The notes beneath the pieces are model-generated. The model was not told the DNA's origin. It saw only the letters and a list, made by a program, of their open reading frames with translations, and did no database searches. A stretch of DNA of 64,000 nucleotides from Bacilli bacterium (GTDB lineage Bacteria > Bacillota_I > Bacilli_A > RF39 > UBA660): contig JAFRZY010000006.1 of assembly GCA_017442305.1 (NCBI GenBank), forward strand, positions 41,538 through 105,537, written 5' to 3'. Position 1 is the first letter of the stretch; each line of letters starts with the position of its first letter. This document shows positions 6,446 through 54,385 of this stretch, in pieces. The position numbers were made by a program, and so were the translations under genes.

Positions 6446-6522
6446 TGGGGCGAAATGTGGGAATCGAACCCACGCATAACAGAGCCACAATCTGCCGTGT
6501 TAACCACTTCACCAATTCCGCC
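6446..6522 (-). tRNA. tRNA-His (anticodon GTG) with G-1 and encoded CCA
   Basis: Manual fold: acceptor GCGGAAT/ATTTCGC plus extra 5' G pairing with discriminator C; anticodon loop TTGTGGC; T-arm GTGGGTTCGATTCCCAC. Near-identical to B. subtilis tRNA-His in the anticodon arm. Confidence 0.85.
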
Positions 6523-11200: not shown

Positions 11201-13090
11201 TTATTCCATTACTATTTCGTAAGGTGTATTTGTATCTATTCGACCATCTCCAGTAAATTTAACGTCTGCTTTTAAGTTAATTACAGGACGAACTTTACGA
11301 CTATCCCCGATTGTTGCATCATAATTTGAAATAGAACCATTTGCAGAAACATAATATACATATAACCCATCATCAAAATCACCTACATCAAGAAAGTAGC
11401 TAGGAGTGGATGTCCAAAACGCTTCGTTACTATATAAATAATGTGTTGCATTGGAAACTACTCCGCCAGCCATTAGTACTTCATCAGCAGTTAATAATCC
11501 TATAGGTTTATCTAATAGACCATTCCCTTTCCCTTCACTTTTTGTATATCTATCGCTCTTATTTGTACATATTAATTTTGGGGCTCTGTTTCGATAAATT
11601 CTAGTATATGGATTAAAGTATACTTCACTCCATCCACTTGAACTAGGATCGGTTATTTCATTGTAATGTTCATCCCAATATCGCCCGATTGATATTTCAC
11701 GGTCATTACAGAATATTCCATCTGCTATATATTTGCCATATGTTTCCTCCAAATTATCTTCGTACCATTTATCTACTACTCCTTTGATTATACTATCCAC
11801 TTGTATTCCGTTACCATCATCATATGTATATCCGACATATTTAGAATTATAATATCCAGTGTTATAAATCGCATCTGCGATTGTCGCTGTATGTGCTACA
11901 CCATTTGCTACAGGCGCTGTTCCATCATAAACAAGCCGGATTGTACCATCGCCATTAATTCTTACAATTCGCCAATACATTGGCATTTCCTCGACATATG
12001 TTACATCGTTTACCGTACTTTCTGATGCATAACTCCCAAATTTTACGTAATTATTGGTTGGCGCTCCTCTAAAATAATATGATATGCCTAAGTCGTCTTG
12101 GGCTTTATATAAACCAGCATCACTTGCAGTCGTGCCTTCACTAAATCCATTGCTTCCTTTTATAGTTTTTGCTGTTACATAATTCCCACTTGTTCCAAAA
12201 TTTGTTACTTCATATATAGTTTGACTTTCATATGTTGAACTGACGTTTTTTATTGTGTATTTTCCACATGTTTTCGTTCCATTTCTACATTCTTCCAATG
12301 TTGCTTGTGTTAGTGTCCCTGATAATGTATAATATCCGATTTCTTTATCAAATTTATATGTTGTTCCATACCAATAACTGTTTGATGTTCCGACACTTGT
12401 TGATGCTGCTGTTATCGTTGAGGCATCTCCTTCTGTCCATTCTGCACTTAAACTTGTTATGGCATCTGCTCCTCCATAGTTAGAAAGTATATCATATGCT
12501 AATGTGCCTTCTTTATATGGATTAAATATTCCCTGACCTATTGTTACACTGATTTTACTTCTAAATGTTTTATTTTGTTCACTGATTGGGGCATTTGCAT
12601 CTATCCAGATGCGTAATTCATATGTTACAGCATCATCTTCTGTTTCGTCTGATGCGCCTGCTAATGTGCCATATGCAAGTTTATTTGATTCATATGCTTC
12701 ACTTATTGTTGGCTCTGCATTTCCTTCAGCAGTTAGTAGTTTTATTTCTTCGTTTAACGCTACTTTAATTGCGCTTGCTTTAATTGCGTTAGTACTATCT
12801 CCTATACTTTCCAAATTTACTTGATAATCAACAGATGTACTACAGTTATTTGTTACTGTAAATTCGTATGGCGTTAGTTTCATTCCTTCGGTATCACTTA
12901 ACGGAAATTGATCAATTAATTCAATATCATTCTTTTCACCACTTAATGATATATCTAAACATCCTGATGAGATTACATTTTGATTTGTTTGAGTCTTTGT
13001 TACTAACCAGTATGCATATGTTACTCCGATTATTACTAGGAGTACTGCTACTATACTTATTACAGTGATTACTGTTTTTTTATTCTTCAT
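11201..13090 (-). CDS. large secreted protein with TasA/camelysin-type N-terminal signal region and a conserved C-terminal domain of unknown function (paralog of 62925-64000)
   Basis: N-terminus KK-hydrophobic-GVTYAYW...SSGCLDISLS parallels the B. subtilis TasA GGGTWAAF...ASGTLDLS SipW-type signal region. C-terminal ~300 aa (YYFRG...WRIVRINGDGTIRLVYDGT...GIFCNDREI...LICTNKSDRYT...GLLTADE...RPVINLK...PYEIV) is shared with the ORF at the window end. Confidence 0.6.
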   Translation of the reverse strand: MKNKKTVITVISIVAVLLVIIGVTYAYWLVTKTQTNQNVISSGCLDISLSGEKNDIELIDQFPLSDTEGMKLTPYEFTVTNNCSTSVDYQVNLESIGDSTNAIKASAIKVALNEEIKLLTAEGNAEPTISEAYESNKLAYGTLAGASDETEDDAVTYELRIWIDANAPISEQNKTFRSKISVTIGQGIFNPYKEGTLAYDILSNYGGADAITSLSAEWTEGDASTITAASTSVGTSNSYWYGTTYKFDKEIGYYTLSGTLTQATLEECRNGTKTCGKYTIKNVSSTYESQTIYEVTNFGTSGNYVTAKTIKGSNGFSEGTTASDAGLYKAQDDLGISYYFRGAPTNNYVKFGSYASESTVNDVTYVEEMPMYWRIVRINGDGTIRLVYDGTAPVANGVAHTATIADAIYNTGYYNSKYVGYTYDDGNGIQVDSIIKGVVDKWYEDNLEETYGKYIADGIFCNDREISIGRYWDEHYNEITDPSSSGWSEVYFNPYTRIYRNRAPKLICTNKSDRYTKSEGKGNGLLDKPIGLLTADEVLMAGGVVSNATHYLYSNEAFWTSTPSYFLDVGDFDDGLYVYYVSANGSISNYDATIGDSRKVRPVINLKADVKFTGDGRIDTNTPYEIVME

Positions 13091-13294: not shown

Positions 13295-13370
13295 TGGCGC
13301 CTGATGCAGGACTCGAACCTGCGACCTAACGGTTAACAGTCGTGCGCTCTACCGACTGAGCTAATCAGGC
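13295..13370 (-). tRNA. tRNA-Asn (anticodon GTT), CCA encoded
   Basis: Acceptor GCCTGAT/ATCAGGC; D-arm GCTC-AGTCGGTA-GAGC; anticodon loop CTGTTAA; T-arm GCAGGTTCGAGTCCTGC. Anticodon stem imperfect (CACGA/CCGTT). Very similar to Firmicute tRNA-Asn. Upstream minus-strand promoter TTGACA-18-TATACT at ~13391-13420. Confidence 0.7.
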
Positions 13371-13454
13371 AAATTTCTGTGTACTCATAAAGTATATAAT
13401 AAATCATATTATTTTGTCAACTAAAATTTACCAAAAATAGTAAGAAAAAGTATC

Positions 13455-13886
13455 CTAGAGATACTTTTTCAATTCATCTAAGTTATGTTGTTCTGTTGCA
13501 AGTAGTTTTTTTGCTAAAGATACAATTTCTTCATCAGCATCATCATAGTGATTTATTTTTTCTGTTATTTCGATTATGCCTTTATTACTTCCTTCGATCA
13601 TCATTTTAGCAATAGCGTTATTTTCGCCTTTTTTAGACATCATCATCATTTCAGTCATCATATAAGAAGTTATTTTAGTTATCTTACCTAATTCTTTTTC
13701 TTCTTTACCATACTTTTTATAAATTTCTTTTGCTTCATTTAAAATAGTATCATATTCTTCTTTTTGTTCTTCCATTAAATTGGCTAATGAAGCATTATCT
13801 ACTCTATCAACTATTTGATTAATACCATTTACACCCATTTCTGCATTTTGATAAATATAGTCTAAAAATTCTATATTTTTATTCAT
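13455..13886 (-). CDS. hypothetical helical protein (143 aa)
   Basis: ORF with Met-rich helical segment TSYMMTEMMMMSKK. No confident family. Palindromic terminator at 13427-13452. Confidence 0.45.
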   Translation of the reverse strand: MNKNIEFLDYIYQNAEMGVNGINQIVDRVDNASLANLMEEQKEEYDTILNEAKEIYKKYGKEEKELGKITKITSYMMTEMMMMSKKGENNAIAKMMIEGSNKGIIEITEKINHYDDADEEIVSLAKKLLATEQHNLDELKKYL

Positions 13887-13926
13887 AAAAAATCACCCAT
13901 TAATATTATGAGTGATTTTTTTGTTT

Positions 13927-15561
13927 TTATACCTCTTGTACTACCGCAATTATCATTGGTTTACATTCAGTTTCTTGATATAAATATCTACTTAATTCTT
14001 CTCTAATTTCTACCTTGATATTATTATAATCTACATAAGTTGGAGTAATATTTCTTTCTATAATTACTTCACATATTTTTTTGATTTCTGCAATCATTTC
14101 TGATGAATCTTTAATATAAATAAAACCTCTAGTAGTAACTTCTGGACCTACTAATAATACTTTATCTTTTTTACTTACTGTTGCGCTTATTAAAACAATA
14201 CCATTTTCACTTAACATTTCACGATCTTTAATAACTAGTTCTCCTACATCATCACTACTTTTACCATCAATTAAAATATCATTAACTTTAATGTGTTCGA
14301 AATTGTCAACATATTCACCATTTTCAATTGTTACTACATCCCCATTTTGTTTTAAGAAGATGTTTTCTGGTTTCATTCCTAGTGATGTTGCCAAATTAGC
14401 ATTGCCTACTAAATAACGATATTCTCCTTTTATTGGCATATAGTATTTAGGATTCATAAGCTTTAACATTAGCATTAAGTCTTCACTTGATGCATGATGT
14501 AAAATAGATTTATCTTTTGGTAATGAAATAATATTACAGCCATACATAGCTAAATCATTTTCAATTTTAACTAAAGCTTTTTCTGTACTATCATATCTTG
14601 GTTCCGCAAATACTACCGAATCAGTTGGTTTTAATTTTATGAATTTATCATATCCATTAATAATTTTGTTCATTGTTGAATATGGATTTGCTTTATCATC
14701 ACATACAAGTAAAATACTATCTTTATCATCAATATTAGATAAATCTCCTAAAATGTCATCATTAAAATGTAAGTAACCTTCTTTTTTGCCAAAACTTACT
14801 ACATTCTGAAGTTTTTTACCCATAGTTATTACTTTACGATGTGTATTTTCTGCTCCATTAAATATATCTTGGATAGTATATAAATGCGTAGGTAATACCA
14901 TTATAATTAGTCTATTTTCTACTCGATTAATAACATCTTTAAAAAATGAAGTTAATCGATGATTTGGTGATGTATGGCCAATATGTTCAGAAAAAACAGA
15001 TTCACTTAATAAACAAAGCACTCCTTGTTTTCCAACATACGCAATTTTTCCCAAATCCATATCATAGGCGCCATTCATAGACGGATCAATAATAAAGTCT
15101 CCAGTATAACAAATTGCTCCGTCTTTAGTATTTAAAACATACATAACAGAATCTGGACAACTATGTGATACAGTTATTGGAAAAATACTTGTCTCACCAA
15201 AGCTAATTTTTTTATGCGGTTTTACATCAATTATTGAACTTTCATTTACGCCTTCTTCAACCAAAACATATTTTGTAAATTTCGTAGCGTAAATCTTAAC
15301 TTCTGGAATATCTTTTAAAAGATCTACTACTCCGCCCATATTTTCAAAATGACCATGAGTTAAAAATACTCCTTTAATTCGATTTTTATTTTTTATTAGA
15401 TAATCAAAATCTGGTATTACGTAATCAATTCCATAAAGGTTGCCACTTGCATACTTTAAACCACAATCAAAAACAAATAGTGATTCATCTACTTCAACTA
15501 TATAGGTGTTTTTGCCATTTTCATCTAATCCACCCAAACTAAAAATTTTAATTTTACTCAT
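13927..15561 (-). CDS. rnj: RNase J-family metallo-beta-lactamase/beta-CASP protein with degenerate catalytic motifs (RNase J2-like)
   Basis: Collinear with B. subtilis RNase J1 over the full length (IFSLGGLDENGKN..., CLLSES, YTGDFIID, PIKGEYRY, C-terminal domain). Motif II reads HGHFENMGG instead of HGHEDHIGG. Beta-CASP motif C reads PIKGE instead of PIHGE. Confidence 0.85.
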   Translation of the reverse strand: MSKIKIFSLGGLDENGKNTYIVEVDESLFVFDCGLKYASGNLYGIDYVIPDFDYLIKNKNRIKGVFLTHGHFENMGGVVDLLKDIPEVKIYATKFTKYVLVEEGVNESSIIDVKPHKKISFGETSIFPITVSHSCPDSVMYVLNTKDGAICYTGDFIIDPSMNGAYDMDLGKIAYVGKQGVLCLLSESVFSEHIGHTSPNHRLTSFFKDVINRVENRLIIMVLPTHLYTIQDIFNGAENTHRKVITMGKKLQNVVSFGKKEGYLHFNDDILGDLSNIDDKDSILLVCDDKANPYSTMNKIINGYDKFIKLKPTDSVVFAEPRYDSTEKALVKIENDLAMYGCNIISLPKDKSILHHASSEDLMLMLKLMNPKYYMPIKGEYRYLVGNANLATSLGMKPENIFLKQNGDVVTIENGEYVDNFEHIKVNDILIDGKSSDDVGELVIKDREMLSENGIVLISATVSKKDKVLLVGPEVTTRGFIYIKDSSEMIAEIKKICEVIIERNITPTYVDYNNIKVEIREELSRYLYQETECKPMIIAVVQEV

Positions 15562-15639
15562 TTTTCCACTCTTTTCTTATATTTAAATTAAAAGTTCTTC
15601 GAATGAGTTAATTATAGCAAAAAAAAGAAAATAAAGCAA

Positions 15640-16419
15640 TTAATTATTTTCTTCTGTTATAAGTTCGCTTAAATAGACAATTTTTAAATCTTGATATTTA
15701 ATTTGATTAATTAATAAAATAAAATCTTCTAATTTAGCAGTGCTTTTTATTAAAATAATATCTCCGCTTTCTAATCTTTTCTTTATCGATGCAAGATTAA
15801 CACTGTTAAGTTCCATTGAACTACTTACTAAATAATTTTCTTTTTCAATACATTTTTCTTTATTTGCCATTTCCACATAACAAATATGCTTATTAAGTTT
15901 TGCTTTATTTAAAAGAGATTCTAATTTTTCAAAATTATTAACATCACTATTAATAATTTCCAGTTTATCTTGTTCTTGATAATTTTCAATATTCATTAAA
16001 ATATTAGCTTTGATATTATTTTCTTTTAAGTAATTTATAATTTGGGAATTATCTTCCAAAATAAAAGAAACACTTTTTTTAAGCTTATTCCCTTTTTTTA
16101 TTATTTTATTTTTATTATTTTCAAGACTAATTTCTGGCGGTACTTGATCAAATACTAAATAGTATGAATTAAATACTTCAAAAGATTTCATTTTATCATA
16201 ACTTTTTTTTACGTTAACTGCAAGTCCGTTGATACCAGGAATTATATATTCATTTATTACCTCTGCATCTATACTAGATACAAACAAATTATTTTTAGCA
16301 TCATTTATACTAGTCATAATCGGACTTTTATTTTGAACATATAGTGCTATTTTTTCAGTATAAAAAAAACTGAAAAGCATAATAGCGCACAATCCAAAAA
16401 ACTTAAAGAATTTTTTCAT
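15640..16419 (-). CDS. membrane-anchored hypothetical protein, possibly a degenerate polysaccharide-deacetylase-like sporulation protein (YlxY/PdaB-like)
   Basis: N-terminal TM. Weak resemblance to NodB-type deacetylases (VFDQ for TFDD; GDIILIK for GxIxLxH), but catalytic His residues are missing. The B. subtilis ylxY/rnjB neighbourhood is similar. Confidence 0.25.
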   Translation of the reverse strand: MKKFFKFFGLCAIMLFSFFYTEKIALYVQNKSPIMTSINDAKNNLFVSSIDAEVINEYIIPGINGLAVNVKKSYDKMKSFEVFNSYYLVFDQVPPEISLENNKNKIIKKGNKLKKSVSFILEDNSQIINYLKENNIKANILMNIENYQEQDKLEIINSDVNNFEKLESLLNKAKLNKHICYVEMANKEKCIEKENYLVSSSMELNSVNLASIKKRLESGDIILIKSTAKLEDFILLINQIKYQDLKIVYLSELITEENN

Positions 16420-22843: not shown

Positions 22844-22930
22844 TGGTGCCTGTGGTGGGACTCGAACCCACACGATATTGCTACCACTGGATTTTGAGTC
22901 CAGCGCGTCTACCAATTCCGCCACACAGGC
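22844..22930 (-). tRNA. tRNA-Leu (anticodon CAA), long variable arm, CCA encoded
   Basis: Acceptor GCCTGTG/CACAGGC; anticodon stem-loop CTGGA-CTCAAAA-TCCAG; variable arm GTGGTAGCAATATCGTG; T-arm GTGGGTTCGAGTCCCAC. 87 nt. Confidence 0.85.
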
Positions 22931-35848: not shown

Positions 35849-35878
35849 AAAAAAGGATTATTTACTAATCCTTTTTCT
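35849..35878. repeat. 30-bp direct repeat copy 2 (pnp 3' end plus terminator hairpin)
   Basis: Identical to 34331-34360. pnp stop codon (35865-35867) lies inside the hairpin. Confidence 0.8.
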
Positions 35879-38045
35879 TTTTATCTTTCTTTTCTTTTTT
35901 GTCTTCTTTTTCTGATTTTGCAGGTTTTGGTAAAGCTTCTTTACGAGATAAGTTTAATCTTCCACGATTATCATATCCTAAAGCCTTAACAACTATTTCA
36001 TCTCCAATTTTAAATAAGTCACTAACTTTTTCTACTCTTTCATAAGCTAATTGAGATACATGTACTAACCCTTCGCAATTAGGCCATAATTCAACAAAGC
36101 AACCAAATTCTTCTACTTTAACAACCTTTCCAGTATAAATAGTTCCAGGTTCAACAACTTTTACTATATCTTCAATCATCTTACGAGTCTTAGCAATAAT
36201 ACTAGCATCAGTATGATAAATAATTACTCTACCATCATCTTCTAAATCAACTTTTACTGCATCCTTATCATTTACTGCTGTAACATTACTAGCTTCTAAA
36301 ATAATTTTAGTAATCATTTCTCCGCCACGGCCAATTACATCTTTAATTTTTTCAGGATCAATGTGGAATACATCAATCTTAGGTGCATATTGACTTAATT
36401 CTTTTCTTGGTTCTGGAATAGCAGTAGTCATAACATCAAGTATTTCTAAACGGGCTTTTTTAGCTTGCGCTAAGGCTTCTTTTAATATTGCTTTAGTTAC
36501 ACCTTTAATTTTAATATCCATTTGAAGCGCTGTAATACCGCTTGCTGTACCCGCAACTTTAAAGTCCATGTCTCCCATGTGATCTTCTAATCCTTGAATA
36601 TCAGTTAGAATTGTATATTTTTTACCATTTTGAATTAATCCCATAGCAATACCTGCTACTGGAGCTTTAATTGGAACTCCTGCCGCCATAAGCGATAAAC
36701 AACCAGCACAAATAGTTGCTTGTGAACTAGAACCATTACTTTCTAGAATTTCACTAACTACACGAATTGTATATGGGAATTCATCTTCACTAGGAATTAC
36801 TTGAGCTAAAGCTCTTTCACCTAATGCTCCATGACCAATCTCTCTTCTTCCTGGTGAACCATATCTTCCTGTTTCACCAACAGAGAATGCAGGGAAATTA
36901 TAATGTAACATAAAACGTTTTGTATCTTCTAAACCTAGACCATCTAACACTTGGTGTTCACCAATAGCCCCTAAAGTTGTAGTCGCTAAACTTTGAGTTT
37001 CTCCTCTTGTAAATACTGCTGAACCGTGAGTGCGAGGAAGTAAGTCAACAAATGCTGAAAGCGGTCTTATTTCATCCATCTTTCTTCCATCTGGTCTAAC
37101 TTTTTTATCAGTTATTAATCTTCTTACTTCATTAGCTTCAATTAAATCAACAACCTTTTTTACTTGTTTTAATTTTTCTTCAGCATCCTCATCTTCTGCA
37201 TAAACTTCCGCAAAGTTTTCTAATGTTTGTTCTTTAACTTCATCAATACGAGCATATTTTGCTAATTTATCTTTGATTTGAATTGCTTCAAGCATATCTT
37301 TTGTAGCATAAGCTTCAACAGCTTCCTTAATTTCTGGATTAATTTCAGCAAGTGGGAGCTCAACTTTTTCTGCTCCAATTTCAGCAATAATTTTTTCTTG
37401 GAATTCACATAACATCTTTATGTGGTCATGTCCAAACATTAATGCTTCAAGCATATCCTTTTCACTAATTTCCTCAGCTCCAGCTTCAACCATGCAGATG
37501 GCATCTTTTGTTCCCGCTACTGTTAAATTAAGAACACTTTGTTCTAACTCTTCAGCTGTTGGATTAATCACAAACTTTTTACCAATTTTACCAACTACTA
37601 CACCAGCAACCGGACCATCGAATGGAATATTACTAATTCCTAAACATAGAGATGAACCAAATAACGCAGTCATAACTGGAGAGTTATTTTGGTCAACTGA
37701 TAGTACTGTGTTAATAACTTGAATTTCATTACGTAGGTTTTCATCAAACATTGGTCTAATTGGACGGTCAATAATACGAGCAGCTAATGTAGCTTCATCA
37801 CTAGGACGCCCTTCTCTTTTTATGAACCCTCCTGGAATTTTACCTACAGAATATAACTTTTCTTGATATAAAACTTGTAATGGAAAGAAATCTTGTGTTA
37901 CTTGATTTTTACCCATTACACATACAGATAATATTACTGTATCGCCATATCTAACTAAAACGGATCCATTAGTTTGTTTAGCAAGCTCTCCCGTTTCTAC
38001 AACTAATTCTCTTCCTAAGAAGTCAAACTTAAATACTTTCTTCAT
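35865..38045 (-). CDS. pnp: polynucleotide phosphorylase
   Basis: 726 aa; two RNase PH domains, KH and S1 domains. N-terminus [31 protein letters not shown]. Lys-rich C-terminal tail. Confidence 0.95.
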
Positions 38046-52159: not shown

Positions 52160-54385
52160 ATGGTGAATAATATGGCAAAGAAAAAGAAAACAAAAGATTC
52201 AGAAGCTAAAAGCTTTACATATAGTGTTGAGTTAACAGGATTAATTTTAATACTAATCGGTATTATTGGATTTGGTTTTGGTCCAGTTGGTTCTATCATC
52301 AAAAAATTCTCAATGTTCTTAGTTGGTGGTTGGGCATGGATATTTTTACTTTTAATAACTTCATTTTTAGGTTTATATATGTTAGTTAAAAGAAAAATGC
52401 CAAAATTCTTCTCAACAAAAATGTTAGGATTTTATATTATATGTTTAATATTATTAGTAGCAAGTCATTTTGGTTTTGTAGAAAAATGTGCTGACGCAAA
52501 AGAAATATTTCAAGTAACCTTTGATAATTATATGGACAGGATAAGTTCTATAAGTGGTACTACAGCATTATTTACATCCGGAACTACTACTATTGAAATT
52601 GGTGGTGGAATAATTGGTGCCACTTTCTCTGTACTATTTTCTTCTTTATTTGGTATTACAGGAACAAAAATAGTATTATTCATTTTATTATTATTTGGTT
52701 TTATTTTATTCTTTAATGTTACGTTTAGTGACATGTTCTCAAAAATTAAGTCATTCTTTAGTAAATTTAAACTTGTTAGAAAAGAAAAGAATAACAAAGA
52801 ATTTAATACTAAAACTTTAGAATATGATGAAGAAGAAAAGAAAAAAGATGACAAGATTATTATTACTAGTGTAGAAGAGTTAAAAACTAATATGGTTAAA
52901 GAAACTGCTAATTATGAAACTGCAGATAATACAAATGCTTCTTATAGACTCCCTTCACTTGCTCTATTAGAAGATCCAGTACAAAATAAAAAAGTTAATT
53001 CAAATAATTTTACTAGAGCAAACAAAGAAACTTTAGAAAGAGTTTTAAACGATTTCCAAATAAAAGGACAAGTTGTTGAAATTCATATAGGACCCGCAGT
53101 TACACAATATGAGGTTGTTGTCCCTGCTGGAACTAAAGTTAGTAGAATATTAAGTATTAATAAAGAAATTGCTTTGGCACTAGCTGCTAAAGATGTTCGT
53201 ATTCAAGCTCCAATTCCCGGAAAAAGTACTATTGGAGTAGAAATACCTAATCCAAATATTAGTATGGTAAAAATAAAAGAAGTTTTGGGTTCAAGAGATT
53301 TTGAACAAAAAGGATCAAAAGTATTAGTTGCTTTAGGTAAAGATATCATGGGAAAAACTCAAGCAATGGATATTGCTAAGACCCCTCACCTTTTAGTTGC
53401 AGGTTCTACTGGTTCTGGTAAATCCGTTTGTATTAATACAATGTTAGCCTCTATACTAATGCGTTATAGACCAGATGAAGTAAAGCTTATGCTGGTTGAC
53501 CCTAAAAAAGTTGAATTATCAAACTATAACGGAGTCCCTCACTTACTTTGTCCAGTTGTAACAGATCCAAAAAAAGCTTCTATAATGTTACAAAAGATAG
53601 TTCAAGAAATGGAAGATAGATATAATCTATTTAGTGATAAAGGCGTTAAAAACATTGGGACTTATAATGAATGGGTTGAAAAAGAAAATAATAAGCATCC
53701 AGAAACCCAAATAAAGAAAATGCCGTATGTTGTTGTTATTATTGATGAACTTGCTGATTTAATGCTAGTTGCATCAAAAGAAGTTGAAGATTCTATTATG
53801 CGAATTACACAAATGGCTCGTGCAGCTGGTATTCATTTAATAGTAGCTACTCAAAGACCATCAACAGATGTTATTACTGGCGTGGTTAAAGCAAATATTC
53901 CTTCAAGAATTTCATTTGCAGTTGCTTCGCAAATTGATTCACGTACTATTTTAGATATGCCAGGAGCTGAAAAATTATTAGGTAAAGGTGATATGTTATT
54001 CTTACCGATGGGCGAAAATGTTCCTATACGTATTCAAGGATGTTTTATTTCAGATAATGAAATTGCTAAAGTAATAGATTATGTATGTAAAGAACAAATT
54101 GCTAAATATGATGAGAAAATGACTACTAACATTGATAATCAACCTGTTGCTCCAGGAAGTGATCCTGAAAACTATGATGATCCAATGTATAATGAAGTTG
54201 TTGAATTCGCTATTCAAACTGGTAAAATCAGTGCTAGCTTAATTCAAAGAAGATTTAGATTCGGATATAACCGTGCAGCTAGAATTATTGACTTGTTAGA
54301 AGATCGTGGTATAGTTGGACCGCAAAATGGTTCTAAACCTCGTGAAGTACTTGTCAAATTACAAGAATCTGAAAATAATGATTAA
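52160..54385 (+). CDS. ftsK: DNA translocase FtsK/SpoIIIE
   Basis: N-terminal TMs, linker, motor domain with Walker A GSTGSGKSV and DELADLM Walker B, C-terminal gamma winged-helix. Confidence 0.9.
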   Translation: MVNNMAKKKKTKDSEAKSFTYSVELTGLILILIGIIGFGFGPVGSIIKKFSMFLVGGWAWIFLLLITSFLGLYMLVKRKMPKFFSTKMLGFYIICLILLVASHFGFVEKCADAKEIFQVTFDNYMDRISSISGTTALFTSGTTTIEIGGGIIGATFSVLFSSLFGITGTKIVLFILLLFGFILFFNVTFSDMFSKIKSFFSKFKLVRKEKNNKEFNTKTLEYDEEEKKKDDKIIITSVEELKTNMVKETANYETADNTNASYRLPSLALLEDPVQNKKVNSNNFTRANKETLERVLNDFQIKGQVVEIHIGPAVTQYEVVVPAGTKVSRILSINKEIALALAAKDVRIQAPIPGKSTIGVEIPNPNISMVKIKEVLGSRDFEQKGSKVLVALGKDIMGKTQAMDIAKTPHLLVAGSTGSGKSVCINTMLASILMRYRPDEVKLMLVDPKKVELSNYNGVPHLLCPVVTDPKKASIMLQKIVQEMEDRYNLFSDKGVKNIGTYNEWVEKENNKHPETQIKKMPYVVVIIDELADLMLVASKEVEDSIMRITQMARAAGIHLIVATQRPSTDVITGVVKANIPSRISFAVASQIDSRTILDMPGAEKLLGKGDMLFLPMGENVPIRIQGCFISDNEIAKVIDYVCKEQIAKYDEKMTTNIDNQPVAPGSDPENYDDPMYNEVVEFAIQTGKISASLIQRRFRFGYNRAARIIDLLEDRGIVGPQNGSKPREVLVKLQESENND

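Follow-up and report, generated by a model that had tools for sequence, protein, structure and literature searches.

What does a bacterium use an RNase J for when part of its metal-binding site has been replaced? This question is raised by a gene at positions 13927..15561 (minus strand) of the window, the 64,000-nucleotide stretch of DNA analyzed here, which comes from a low-GC gut Bacilli bacterium that forms spores and is uncultured. The gene has an ATG start and encodes a protein of 544 amino acids; it was recognized as a candidate rnjB-like gene, encoding an RNase J2-type paralog, from its open reading frame, Pfam, TIGR00649 and PDB matches, and an AF2 model searched with Foldseek. The initial annotation of the sequence had considered the product a pseudo-enzyme or an RNase J2-like protein. 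It had left two possibilities side by side: the gene could be the only RNase J copy of an organism with unusual mRNA decay, or a specialized J2 that accompanies a J1.

The gene is a member of the RNase J family, with collinear MBL, beta-CASP and RNase J C-terminal domains and the RNase J fold. Pfam domains follow in the order Lactamase_B (residues 15–157), RNase_J_b_CASP (216–320), RMMBL (355–392) and RNase_J_C (443–544), the last being a well-kept C-terminal oligomerization domain (PF17770, E 3.6e-25). Residues 5–544 align with residues 10–555 of Bacillus subtilis J1 (PDB 3zq4, E 3.7e-97), and this alignment and the domain order agree with the collinearity with RNase J1 described in the initial annotation. 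The TIGR00649 cut-off of 400 bits is passed narrowly (421.1 bits), and the best PDB sequence match is a staphylococcal J2 (E 3e-100). In Foldseek searches, the AF2 single-chain model (pLDDT 83.5) matches all RNase J structures with a probability of 1.00 and TM scores of 0.72–0.78, which rise to 0.88–0.90 for the catalytic core. The top match is chain 9a5v_A, the B. subtilis RNJ2 of an RNJ2–RNJ1 model, at 33% identity; the core of Staphylococcus epidermidis J2 superposes on the model with a TM score of 0.88–0.90 and an rmsd of about 2.5 Å.

The translation contains FLTHGHFENMGG, VSHSCPDS, TGDFII, LLSESV and YMPIKGEY, and motifs I, III, IV and A are retained. Motif II (residues 69–74; 15340..15357, minus strand) has HGHFEN where J1 has HGHEDH, with His69 and His71 unchanged, the Asp exchanged for Glu73 and the following His for Asn74. 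Beta-CASP motif C (residues 376–380; 14422..14436, minus strand) reads PIKGE, with Lys378 in place of the metal-ligand His. Motif III His133 (SHS; 15163..15165, minus strand) and motif IV Asp155 (GDF; 15097..15099, minus strand), a metal ligand and the bridging ligand, respectively, are invariant in both the J2-like and the J1 sets; staphylococcal J2 has a Glu at the latter position. The readings of motifs II, III, IV and C, and the SES of motif A, are those given in the initial annotation. It did not mention that the neighborhood of motif B (residues 352–357; 14491..14508, minus strand) is degenerate as well: the HTSGHA of J1 has become SILHHA, with loss of the Ser-Gly and retention of the last His (His356).

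The window protein does not have the full canonical set of seven metal ligands, formed by HxHxDH, the motif III His, the motif IV Asp and the motif C His. Four ligands are identical (His69, His71, His133 and Asp155), one is conservatively changed (Asp to Glu73), and two are lost outright (His to Asn74 in motif II and His to Lys378 in motif C). The earlier count of two lost ligands out of seven holds for Asn74 and Lys378, with Glu73 as a third, milder change; likewise, the third His of motif II is indeed gone, as had been stated, but the Asp reported lost with it has a conservative replacement. Judged by these residues, one complete metal site is kept (His69, His71, His133 and Asp155, with Glu73 nearby) and the second site is lost.

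That these changes reflect a sequencing or assembly artefact, or a decaying pseudogene, has a practically negligible probability, and nothing was found that speaks for it. An identical protein is encoded on eight contigs from independent metagenome samples, and the signature H-[GS]-H-x-E-N is present in all of the 120 closest database homologs (x is Tyr or Phe in 118, and the motif C position is Lys or Glu), so that the deviations are neither chance nor error. The motif is also conserved across 220 species-level genome matches. For comparison, 118 of 120 J1 proteins of the lineage have HGHEDHIGG, and all have the motif C His. Within the clade of the window protein, Glu73, Asn74, His356, Cys533 and Lys534 are each found in 61/61 aligned members, and at motif C, 50 of these 61 proteins have Lys and 11 have Glu, versus His in 60/60 J1 proteins. 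The reading frame is intact over its 544 codons, and with a dN/dS of 0.024–0.027 the J2-like gene is under strong purifying selection; between same-genome pairs, the J2-like proteins share 70–74% identity versus 75–80% for J1. The eight contigs, the 120 homologs and the dN/dS values together exclude a sequencing error in motif II, which had been named at the outset as grounds for giving up the reading.

The lineage has a second, canonical enzyme, and the organism itself probably does too. In four related species (loci L007, L008, L027 and L051), the contig with the J2-like gene carries another RNase J, no more than 10 kb away. This copy has intact HGHEDH, HTSGH and PMHGE motifs and scores 636 bits against the J1 structures of both B. 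subtilis and S. epidermidis versus 427 against J2. With the NCBIfam RnjA model (NF047419, cut-off 820 bits) it reaches 754–782 bits, S. epidermidis J2 642 bits and the window protein 428 bits; the score of the last, together with HGHFEN, SILHH and PIKGE, sets it outside RNase J1. Five further J1/J2 pairs are linked through an identical assembly statistic, many J1 homologs are known from the same clade and sample series, and an RNase Y gene adjoins J1 in one locus (L095). The Mollicutes, which are kin of these metagenome-assembled genomes (MAGs), all have J1 plus J2.

It is therefore very improbable that the window gene is the organism's only RNase J and that 5'-3' RNA decay is absent or unusual, given the intact J1 that shares a contig with the J2-like gene in four relatives, the RNase Y gene beside J1 in L095 and the J1 homologs of the clade and sample series. 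The points in its favor are that the 64-kb window holds no second RNase J and that the J1 of this very genome was not located; the window, however, is a small fraction of the genome. BLASTN comparison of the J1 loci with the window gave no overlap. None of the candidate lineage J1 proteins (P0125, P0131, P0130, P0135, P0133 and P0129) comes from samples with the window protein, and by their NCBI accessions they belong to other MAGs. The only pair from a single sample (P0003/P0135, JGI 3300031555) was set aside as an unreliable J1 link: P0003 shares 95% identity with the window protein, whereas between the J1 P0135 and the other group of candidate J1 proteins identity is just 82%. The second RNase J with HGHEDH that the initial annotation had proposed to search for is thus found in four related species and not within the window. 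Its notion of a sole copy with unusual mRNA decay lacks support, and its alternative, a specialized J2 beside a J1, is supported by the same-contig J1 copies and by the degenerate sites of characterized J2 proteins. We infer that J1 is also present in this exact genome.

Compared with RNase J1 (RnjA; 3zq4, 6k6s), the window protein is collinear over its full length, has the same three-domain fold, and shares the His of motif B as well as motifs I, III, IV and A. Identity to J1 is only about 30%, however; the sixth residue of motif II and the motif C ligand are no longer His, HTSGH has lost its Ser-Gly, and two J1 loops, GSQGEP and SSSPIPGN, are absent. The lineage also contains a separate, true J1 ortholog.

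B. subtilis J2 (RnjB/YmfA) is among the closest known counterparts of the window protein. Both are full-length paralogs that coexist with J1, which in the window lineage was seen in relatives, and B. subtilis J2 is the best Foldseek match (9a5v_A). Motif II of B. subtilis J2 (74-HGHDEN-79) has Glu as its fifth and Asn as its sixth residue, as does HGHFEN. An H76A mutation in this motif is without effect on target decay: the catalytic site of B. subtilis J2 is dispensable, and the protein acts as a specificity cofactor of J1 through subunit contact. The two proteins differ in that identity is about 33%, position 4 of motif II is Asp in B. subtilis and Phe or Tyr in the window clade, and the motif B segment of the window protein is SILHH. 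They also differ at a salt-bridge residue. In B. subtilis J2, Arg544 and Asp449 are residues of inter-subunit salt bridging, and mutation of Arg544 abolishes J2 function; in the window clade, the position of Arg544 is taken by Cys533, which does not vary, and the next residue, Lys534, is invariant too. The equivalent of Asp449, Asp438, is invariant in both paralogs, and the lineage J1 keeps both the partner Arg and the Asp. The conserved Asp speaks for a J2-type pairing with J1, and the replaced Arg against it.

The staphylococcal J2 proteins (PDB 6k6w, 8yyf–8yyk) are the best PDB sequence match, with a core TM score of 0.9 and an rmsd of 2.5 Å. They, too, depart from J1 at motif C and at the fifth and sixth positions of motif II, and one metal site is left: S. 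epidermidis J2 has His, Ala, Glu and Gln where J1 has Asp78, His79, Asp164 and His389, and it binds a single Mn. The details differ, with HGHEHA and a motif C Gln (PVQGE) in both S. aureus and S. epidermidis J2, a motif IV that is also changed (GEF) and HASSH near motif B, against HGHFEN, PIKGE, GDF and SILHH in the window protein, and the two do not cluster jointly in the neighbor-joining (NJ) tree described below. In S. aureus, deletion of J2 has a phenotype and an active-site mutant has none, and a structural role was proposed for the protein because of the latter. S. epidermidis J2 is reported to be mainly a monomer, with weak endonuclease activity.

Against this background, the window gene probably encodes an RNase J2-type (RnjB-like) paralog that serves as a partner or specificity subunit of J1 and has at most slight exonuclease activity itself. 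The altered metal site would hold a single metal ion, and given the loss of the second site together with the SILHH segment, the protein would most likely be almost or entirely inactive as a 5'-3' exonuclease and no more than a weak one-metal endonuclease. It is predicted to form a heteromer with the canonical J1 of the same cell and to modulate the stability or the substrate choice of J1; a J1-partner role has been shown for J2 in both S. aureus and B. subtilis. The term pseudo-enzyme, used in the initial annotation, is too strong, since one full metal site is kept and weak endonuclease activity is known from staphylococcal J2, whose site is similar.

The same residues could be taken to describe a nuclease in its own right, namely a J1-independent, one-metal endoribonuclease with a His-His-His-Asp site that is assisted by Glu73, Lys378 or both. 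His69, His71, Glu73, His133 and Asp155 offer potential ligands at all five Mn positions of staphylococcal J2. The invariance of the substituted residues and the dN/dS of about 0.025 can be read as selection on the pocket itself, and an autonomous role is conceivable because S. epidermidis J2 was reported to be predominantly monomeric and to have endonuclease activity. Binding of RNA, or of a metal with a structural role, could however explain the conservation of the pocket equally well. In vivo, S. aureus and B. subtilis can do without the catalytic site of J2 but require the protein itself and its contact with J1, and the oligomerization domain (PF17770) is well conserved in the window protein. 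We therefore consider an autonomous nuclease rather unlikely.

The surroundings of the gene bear on its orthology to rnjB. The features given below with coordinates, and infB, lie on the minus strand, like the gene itself. An extended −10 promoter-like element, TGCTATAAT (15611..15619), recognized purely by its match to the consensus, is located about 50 nt upstream of the ATG, and a purine-rich, Shine-Dalgarno-like sequence, AAAAGAGTGG (15566–15575), was read between the two. Directly upstream is a ylxY-like gene (15640..16419, 259 amino acids), whose product weakly resembles YlxY, a sporulation protein of the polysaccharide deacetylase family (TIGR02873, E 6e-13, far below cut-off); it occupies this place, on the same strand, in 44/80 species loci. 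Downstream, 40 nt past the stop codon, a gene of 143 amino acids (13455..13886) belongs to the DUF2383 family by a Pfam score of 31.3 bits against a cut-off of 30.8. It is the next gene on the same strand in 41/80 loci and is probably co-transcribed with the rnjB-like gene; a terminator-like hairpin with a T-run (13444..13470) is found at its end. The Rfam scan of the window returned three tRNAs only, none associated with the rnjB-like gene. Farther upstream are pnpA, encoding PNPase (35865..38045; Pfam RNase_PH, PNPase and S1), at about 20 kb, and infB at 28 kb. In B. subtilis, rnjB lies downstream of infB, pnpA and ylxY. In S. aureus, the PNPase gene SAR1250 adjoins the RNase J2 gene SAR1251. 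On a larger scale, the order in the window, where infB, pnpA and a ylxY-like gene precede the rnjB-like gene on one strand, resembles the setting of rnjB in these two species, with some 20 kb between pnpA and the rnjB-like gene.

The phylogenetic position is less straightforward. In an NJ tree, which left out B. subtilis J2 and, as a distance method applied to fast-evolving sequences, is prone to long-branch attraction, the window clade joined the characterized Bacilli J2 proteins (S. epidermidis and Floricoccus) in 0/100 bootstraps. In the same tree, it grouped with two other degenerate clades, 'SMHA/PxKGE' and 'PVIGE', in 100/100. These clades from uncultured Bacilli are the closest relatives outside the window clade (35–38% identity), recurrently have Lys or Arg at motif C and have also lost the third His of motif II. 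They differ in the motif B neighborhood and the details of motif II, are uncharacterized and are annotated just as 'ribonuclease J'. A one-residue deletion before motif B is common to all degenerate clades, including Bacilli J2, which is weak evidence. Two indels shared with S. epidermidis J2 were considered as signs of orthology and dropped after a wider alignment; the first is an ancestral state, because the deletion is specific to J1.

This topology could be read to mean that the gene is part of a distinct and older group of degenerate RNase J paralogs that is not orthologous to RnjB and has a function of its own, possibly tied to the conserved ylxY-like and DUF2383 neighbors and to sporulation. 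In addition to the bootstrap values, the ylxY-like/J2-like/DUF2383 cluster, kept in 41–44 of the 80 species loci, speaks for such a family. However, a distance tree of fast sequences is prone to long-branch attraction, H-x-H-x-E-N corresponds to the HGHDEN of B. subtilis J2, the deletion before motif B is shared with Bacilli J2, the pnpA/ylxY synteny fits rnjB, and the top structural match is B. subtilis RNJ2, which makes a non-RnjB family distinctly improbable. A bolder form, which we regard as unlikely, unites the window, 'SMHA/PxKGE' and 'PVIGE' clades in one large, uncharacterized paralog family of uncultured Bacilli and of lineages related to Mollicutes. It would be distinct from the RnjB of Bacillales and Lactobacillales, with a conserved cationic side chain, the motif C Lys or Arg, replacing the second metal ion. 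If this were true, the proteins would either cleave RNA by a new mechanism that combines one metal with a lysine, or be non-catalytic subunits dedicated to handling RNA, possibly in partnership with the conserved ylxY-like and DUF2383 neighbors.

Taken together, the gene is real and functional, and its degenerate pattern is one already known for J2; it is an ordinary gene, because its relatives also have a normal J1 copy. Its annotation should read RNase J2-type (RnjB-like) paralog and not generic 'ribonuclease J', and its degenerate metal site should not be taken as a loss of 5'-3' RNA decay in the organism. A representative search shows that the diversity of degenerate RNase J paralogs, often with a motif C Lys, goes far beyond the small number studied so far. 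The H-x-H-x-E-N signature, which B. subtilis J2 shares, is fixed in hundreds of species of uncultured gut Bacilli and is under strong purifying selection, which fits the emerging view of J2 as a conserved, largely non-catalytic cofactor of J1.

The open reading frame at 13927..15561 (-) starts with ATG and encodes a 544-aa protein, whose translation contains FLTHGHFENMGG, VSHSCPDS, TGDFII, LLSESV, and YMPIKGEY, in agreement with the motifs given in the initial annotation. Its Pfam domains follow the order Lactamase_B, RNase_J_b_CASP, RMMBL, and RNase_J_C, with the C-terminal domain kept (E 3.6e-25). In NCBIfam, the protein scores 421 bits against the RNase J family model TIGR00649 (cut-off 400) and 428 bits against the J1-specific model NF047419 (cut-off 820). 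The best PDB match is RNase J2 of S. epidermidis (6k6w, E 3e-100). Next come the J1 enzymes of B. subtilis (3zq4, E 4e-97) and S. epidermidis (E 1e-89), and each of the three alignments is full-length, which bears out the proposed collinearity with RNase J1.

The active site was analyzed in an alignment that also contained J1 of B. subtilis, both S. epidermidis paralogues (J1 and J2), and the intact J1 copy of related species (lineage J1). The Asp of motif I (Asp32), the His of motif III (His133), and the Asp of motif IV (Asp155) are kept, whereas the canonical HGHEDH of motif II reads HGHFEN, the SDS of motif A reads SES, and the His of motif C is Lys378. The motif B segment HTSGH is replaced by SILHH, in which His356 is kept, and the beta-CASP loops GSQGEP and SSSPIPGN are replaced by DDKANP and AEPRYDST. 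Of the two Mn ions of S. epidermidis J1, the first is bound by His74, His76, His142, and Asp164, and the other by Asp78, His79, Asp164, and His390. By homology, the window protein would keep all ligands of the first metal site, and its second site would comprise only the bridging Asp and a Glu replacing Asp78. The same pattern of ligand loss, with a degenerate second site, is found in staphylococcal J2, where His, Ala, Glu, and Gln take the place of the J1 residues Asp78, His79, Asp164, and His389 and a single Mn is bound. B. subtilis J2 follows this pattern as well; its motif II (74-HGHDEN-79) and the HGHFEN of the window protein have the Glu-Asn pair in common.

Eight contigs from independent metagenome assemblies encode a protein identical to the window protein, which excludes the read or assembly error that had been considered as a source of the altered motif. 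When a single genome from each species was scanned, 220 species-level matches were obtained; nearly all belong to "Bacilli bacterium" or "Tenericutes" MAGs of uncultured gut bacteria, Ca. Onthocola and Ca. Coprovivens among them. The motif H-[GS]-H-x-E-N occurs in each of the 120 closest proteins, with Tyr or Phe as x in 118, and the motif C residue of these proteins is Lys or Glu. In a conservation alignment of 61 J2-like and 60 J1 sequences, Glu73, Asn74, His133, Asp155, His356, Cys533, and Lys534 are invariant within the J2-like set. The dN/dS of the window gene is 0.027 and 0.024 relative to orthologues with 97% and 95% identity, respectively. Between genomes with both paralogues, the J2-like proteins are 70-74% and the J1 proteins 75-80% identical, so that constraint on the J2-like protein is close to that on J1. 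Judged from these sequence comparisons, the window gene is real and under selection.

An AlphaFold2 model based on a 121-sequence alignment (mean pLDDT 83.5) matches the catalytic core of S. epidermidis J2 with TM 0.88-0.90 and rmsd 2.3-2.8 Å. Foldseek against the PDB ranked the B. subtilis RNJ2 chain of 9a5v, an integrative RNJ2-RNJ1 model, first (33% identity), followed by RNJ1, 3zq4, and then the remaining RNase J structures. We counted this top match in favor of orthology with RnjB (J2), together with the H-x-H-x-E-N signature common to the J2-like clade and B. subtilis J2, and a one-residue deletion before motif B that the J2-like clade shares with the Bacilli J2 clade. Synteny points the same way: the gene directly upstream weakly matches the sporulation protein YlxY, pnpA (PNPase; 35865-38045, -) and infB (IF-2; 43863-45974, -) lie further upstream in the same orientation, with ftsK/spoIIIE (52160-54385, +) nearby. 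This arrangement resembles the B. subtilis gene order, which we take to be infB...pnpA-ylxY...rnjB...spoIIIE. It also resembles S. aureus, where pnpA adjoins rnjB. The flanks additionally contain spoVS, spoVA, and Coat_F genes; together, these genes indicate a spore-forming member of the Bacilli whose macro-synteny around rnjB resembles that of B. subtilis. In a neighbor-joining tree of 146 representatives other than B. subtilis J2, the window clade (bootstrap 93%) joined other degenerate paralogue clades in every replicate (100%) and never grouped with the S. epidermidis/Floricoccus J2 clade, a grouping for which long-branch attraction is a plausible cause. We therefore use the label RNase J2-type to describe function and architecture; it makes no claim of strict RnjB orthology.

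Degenerate RNase J proteins are also found more widely. When 1.84 billion representatives were searched exhaustively, 1275 proteins matched at E <= 1e-30, and about one-third of the best 150 have degenerate motifs. Frequent states are Lys or Arg in motif C and H-G-H-D-D-x in motif II. In a few full-length homologues (P0268, P0311, P0343, and P0366), almost none of the motif II metal ligands are left (KAADDC, NPSAYN, KVSAEN, KSKKDS); these are likely true pseudo-enzymes, more extreme than the window protein. The only named degenerate representatives are annotated as "ribonuclease J [Bacilli bacterium]". All Mollicutes have been reported to retain both J1 and J2.

The window gene lies in a tightly spaced cluster (13455-16419, -) between a 259-aa ylxY-like gene (weak TIGR02873 match) and a 143-aa DUF2383 gene, which starts 40 nt after the window gene and has a terminator-like hairpin at its end. 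An extended -10-like element, TGCTATAAT, and a purine-rich SD-like sequence are predicted 5' of the ATG. The trio is kept in 41-44 of 80 species loci (L007-L086). A tRNA-Asn (GTT; 13295-13370, -) is located directly downstream of the DUF2383 terminator, and two more tRNAs are found at 6449-6521 and 22847-22930. Beyond the tRNA-Asn, a 629-aa ORF (11201-13090, -) has an N-terminal hydrophobic segment and gave no match in Pfam and NCBIfam. It is exchanged for ORFs of 348 and 259 aa (L002) or 554 aa (L092) on two otherwise syntenic contigs, where the J2-like gene is identical or 97% identical to that of the window; the site is thus a strain-variable locus adjoining tRNA-Asn.

TBLASTN with the window protein detected no second RNase J within the 64-kb window. 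Across all fetched loci, a second copy, about 30% identical, was found on the same contig less than 10 kb away in four related species (L007, L008, L027, and L051). Its translation contains ITHGHEDHIGG, THS, GDF, SDS, HTSGHA, and PMHGE, and it scores 636 bits to the J1 structures of B. subtilis and S. epidermidis alike, 427 bits to J2, and 754-782 bits against the RnjA (J1) model. HGHEDHIGG is present in 118 of the 120 close homologues of lineage J1 retrieved from the database. For five of these homologues, the length of the longest contig is the same as that recorded for a J2-like protein. Of the two scenarios in the initial annotation, these data from related species support a specialized J2 beside J1, and we reject a lone degenerate copy with unusual mRNA decay as very unlikely. 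In the four species, J1 and ftsY-ylxM(-ffh) are divergent neighbors, with the J2-like gene a few kb away. The same divergent arrangement of J1 occurs in L087-L091, L094, and L101, and in some species J1 adjoins sufU-sufS-sufD-sufC. A 53-nt stretch just past a gene end in the window (38763-38814) recurs with 91-94% identity immediately after sufU in J1 loci of relatives (L087, 12027-12079; also L088-L091). It folds as small hairpins (z = -2.5) and may be a shared terminator or small repeat element. In the closest relatives of the window, J1 and the J2-like gene are on separate contigs or regions. As look-ups of six candidate lineage J1 proteins placed none of them in samples carrying the window protein, the presence of J1 in the window's own genome is something we infer. 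In L095, an RNase Y gene adjoins J1, and the lineage thus appears to be equipped with the RNA decay enzymes usual in Firmicutes.

The exonuclease of B. subtilis J2 is ~1000-fold weaker, its H76A mutation leaves target half-lives unchanged, and for a subset of mRNAs the protein stimulates J1 via a subunit contact involving Arg544. In the J2-like clade, the equivalent of Arg544 is instead an invariant Cys-Lys, whereas B. subtilis D449 is matched by the invariant Asp438; lineage J1 retains the partner Arg. S. epidermidis J2 acts as a weak one-metal endonuclease, and the main alternative reading of the window protein is a one-metal endonuclease that acts autonomously. In S. aureus, J2 deletion has a phenotype but a J2 active-site mutant has none, and the authors proposed that the active site comes from J1 and that the role of J2 is structural. 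We consider it probable that the window protein would similarly act as a partner or specificity subunit of J1, with no meaningful exonuclease and at most weak endonuclease activity of its own.
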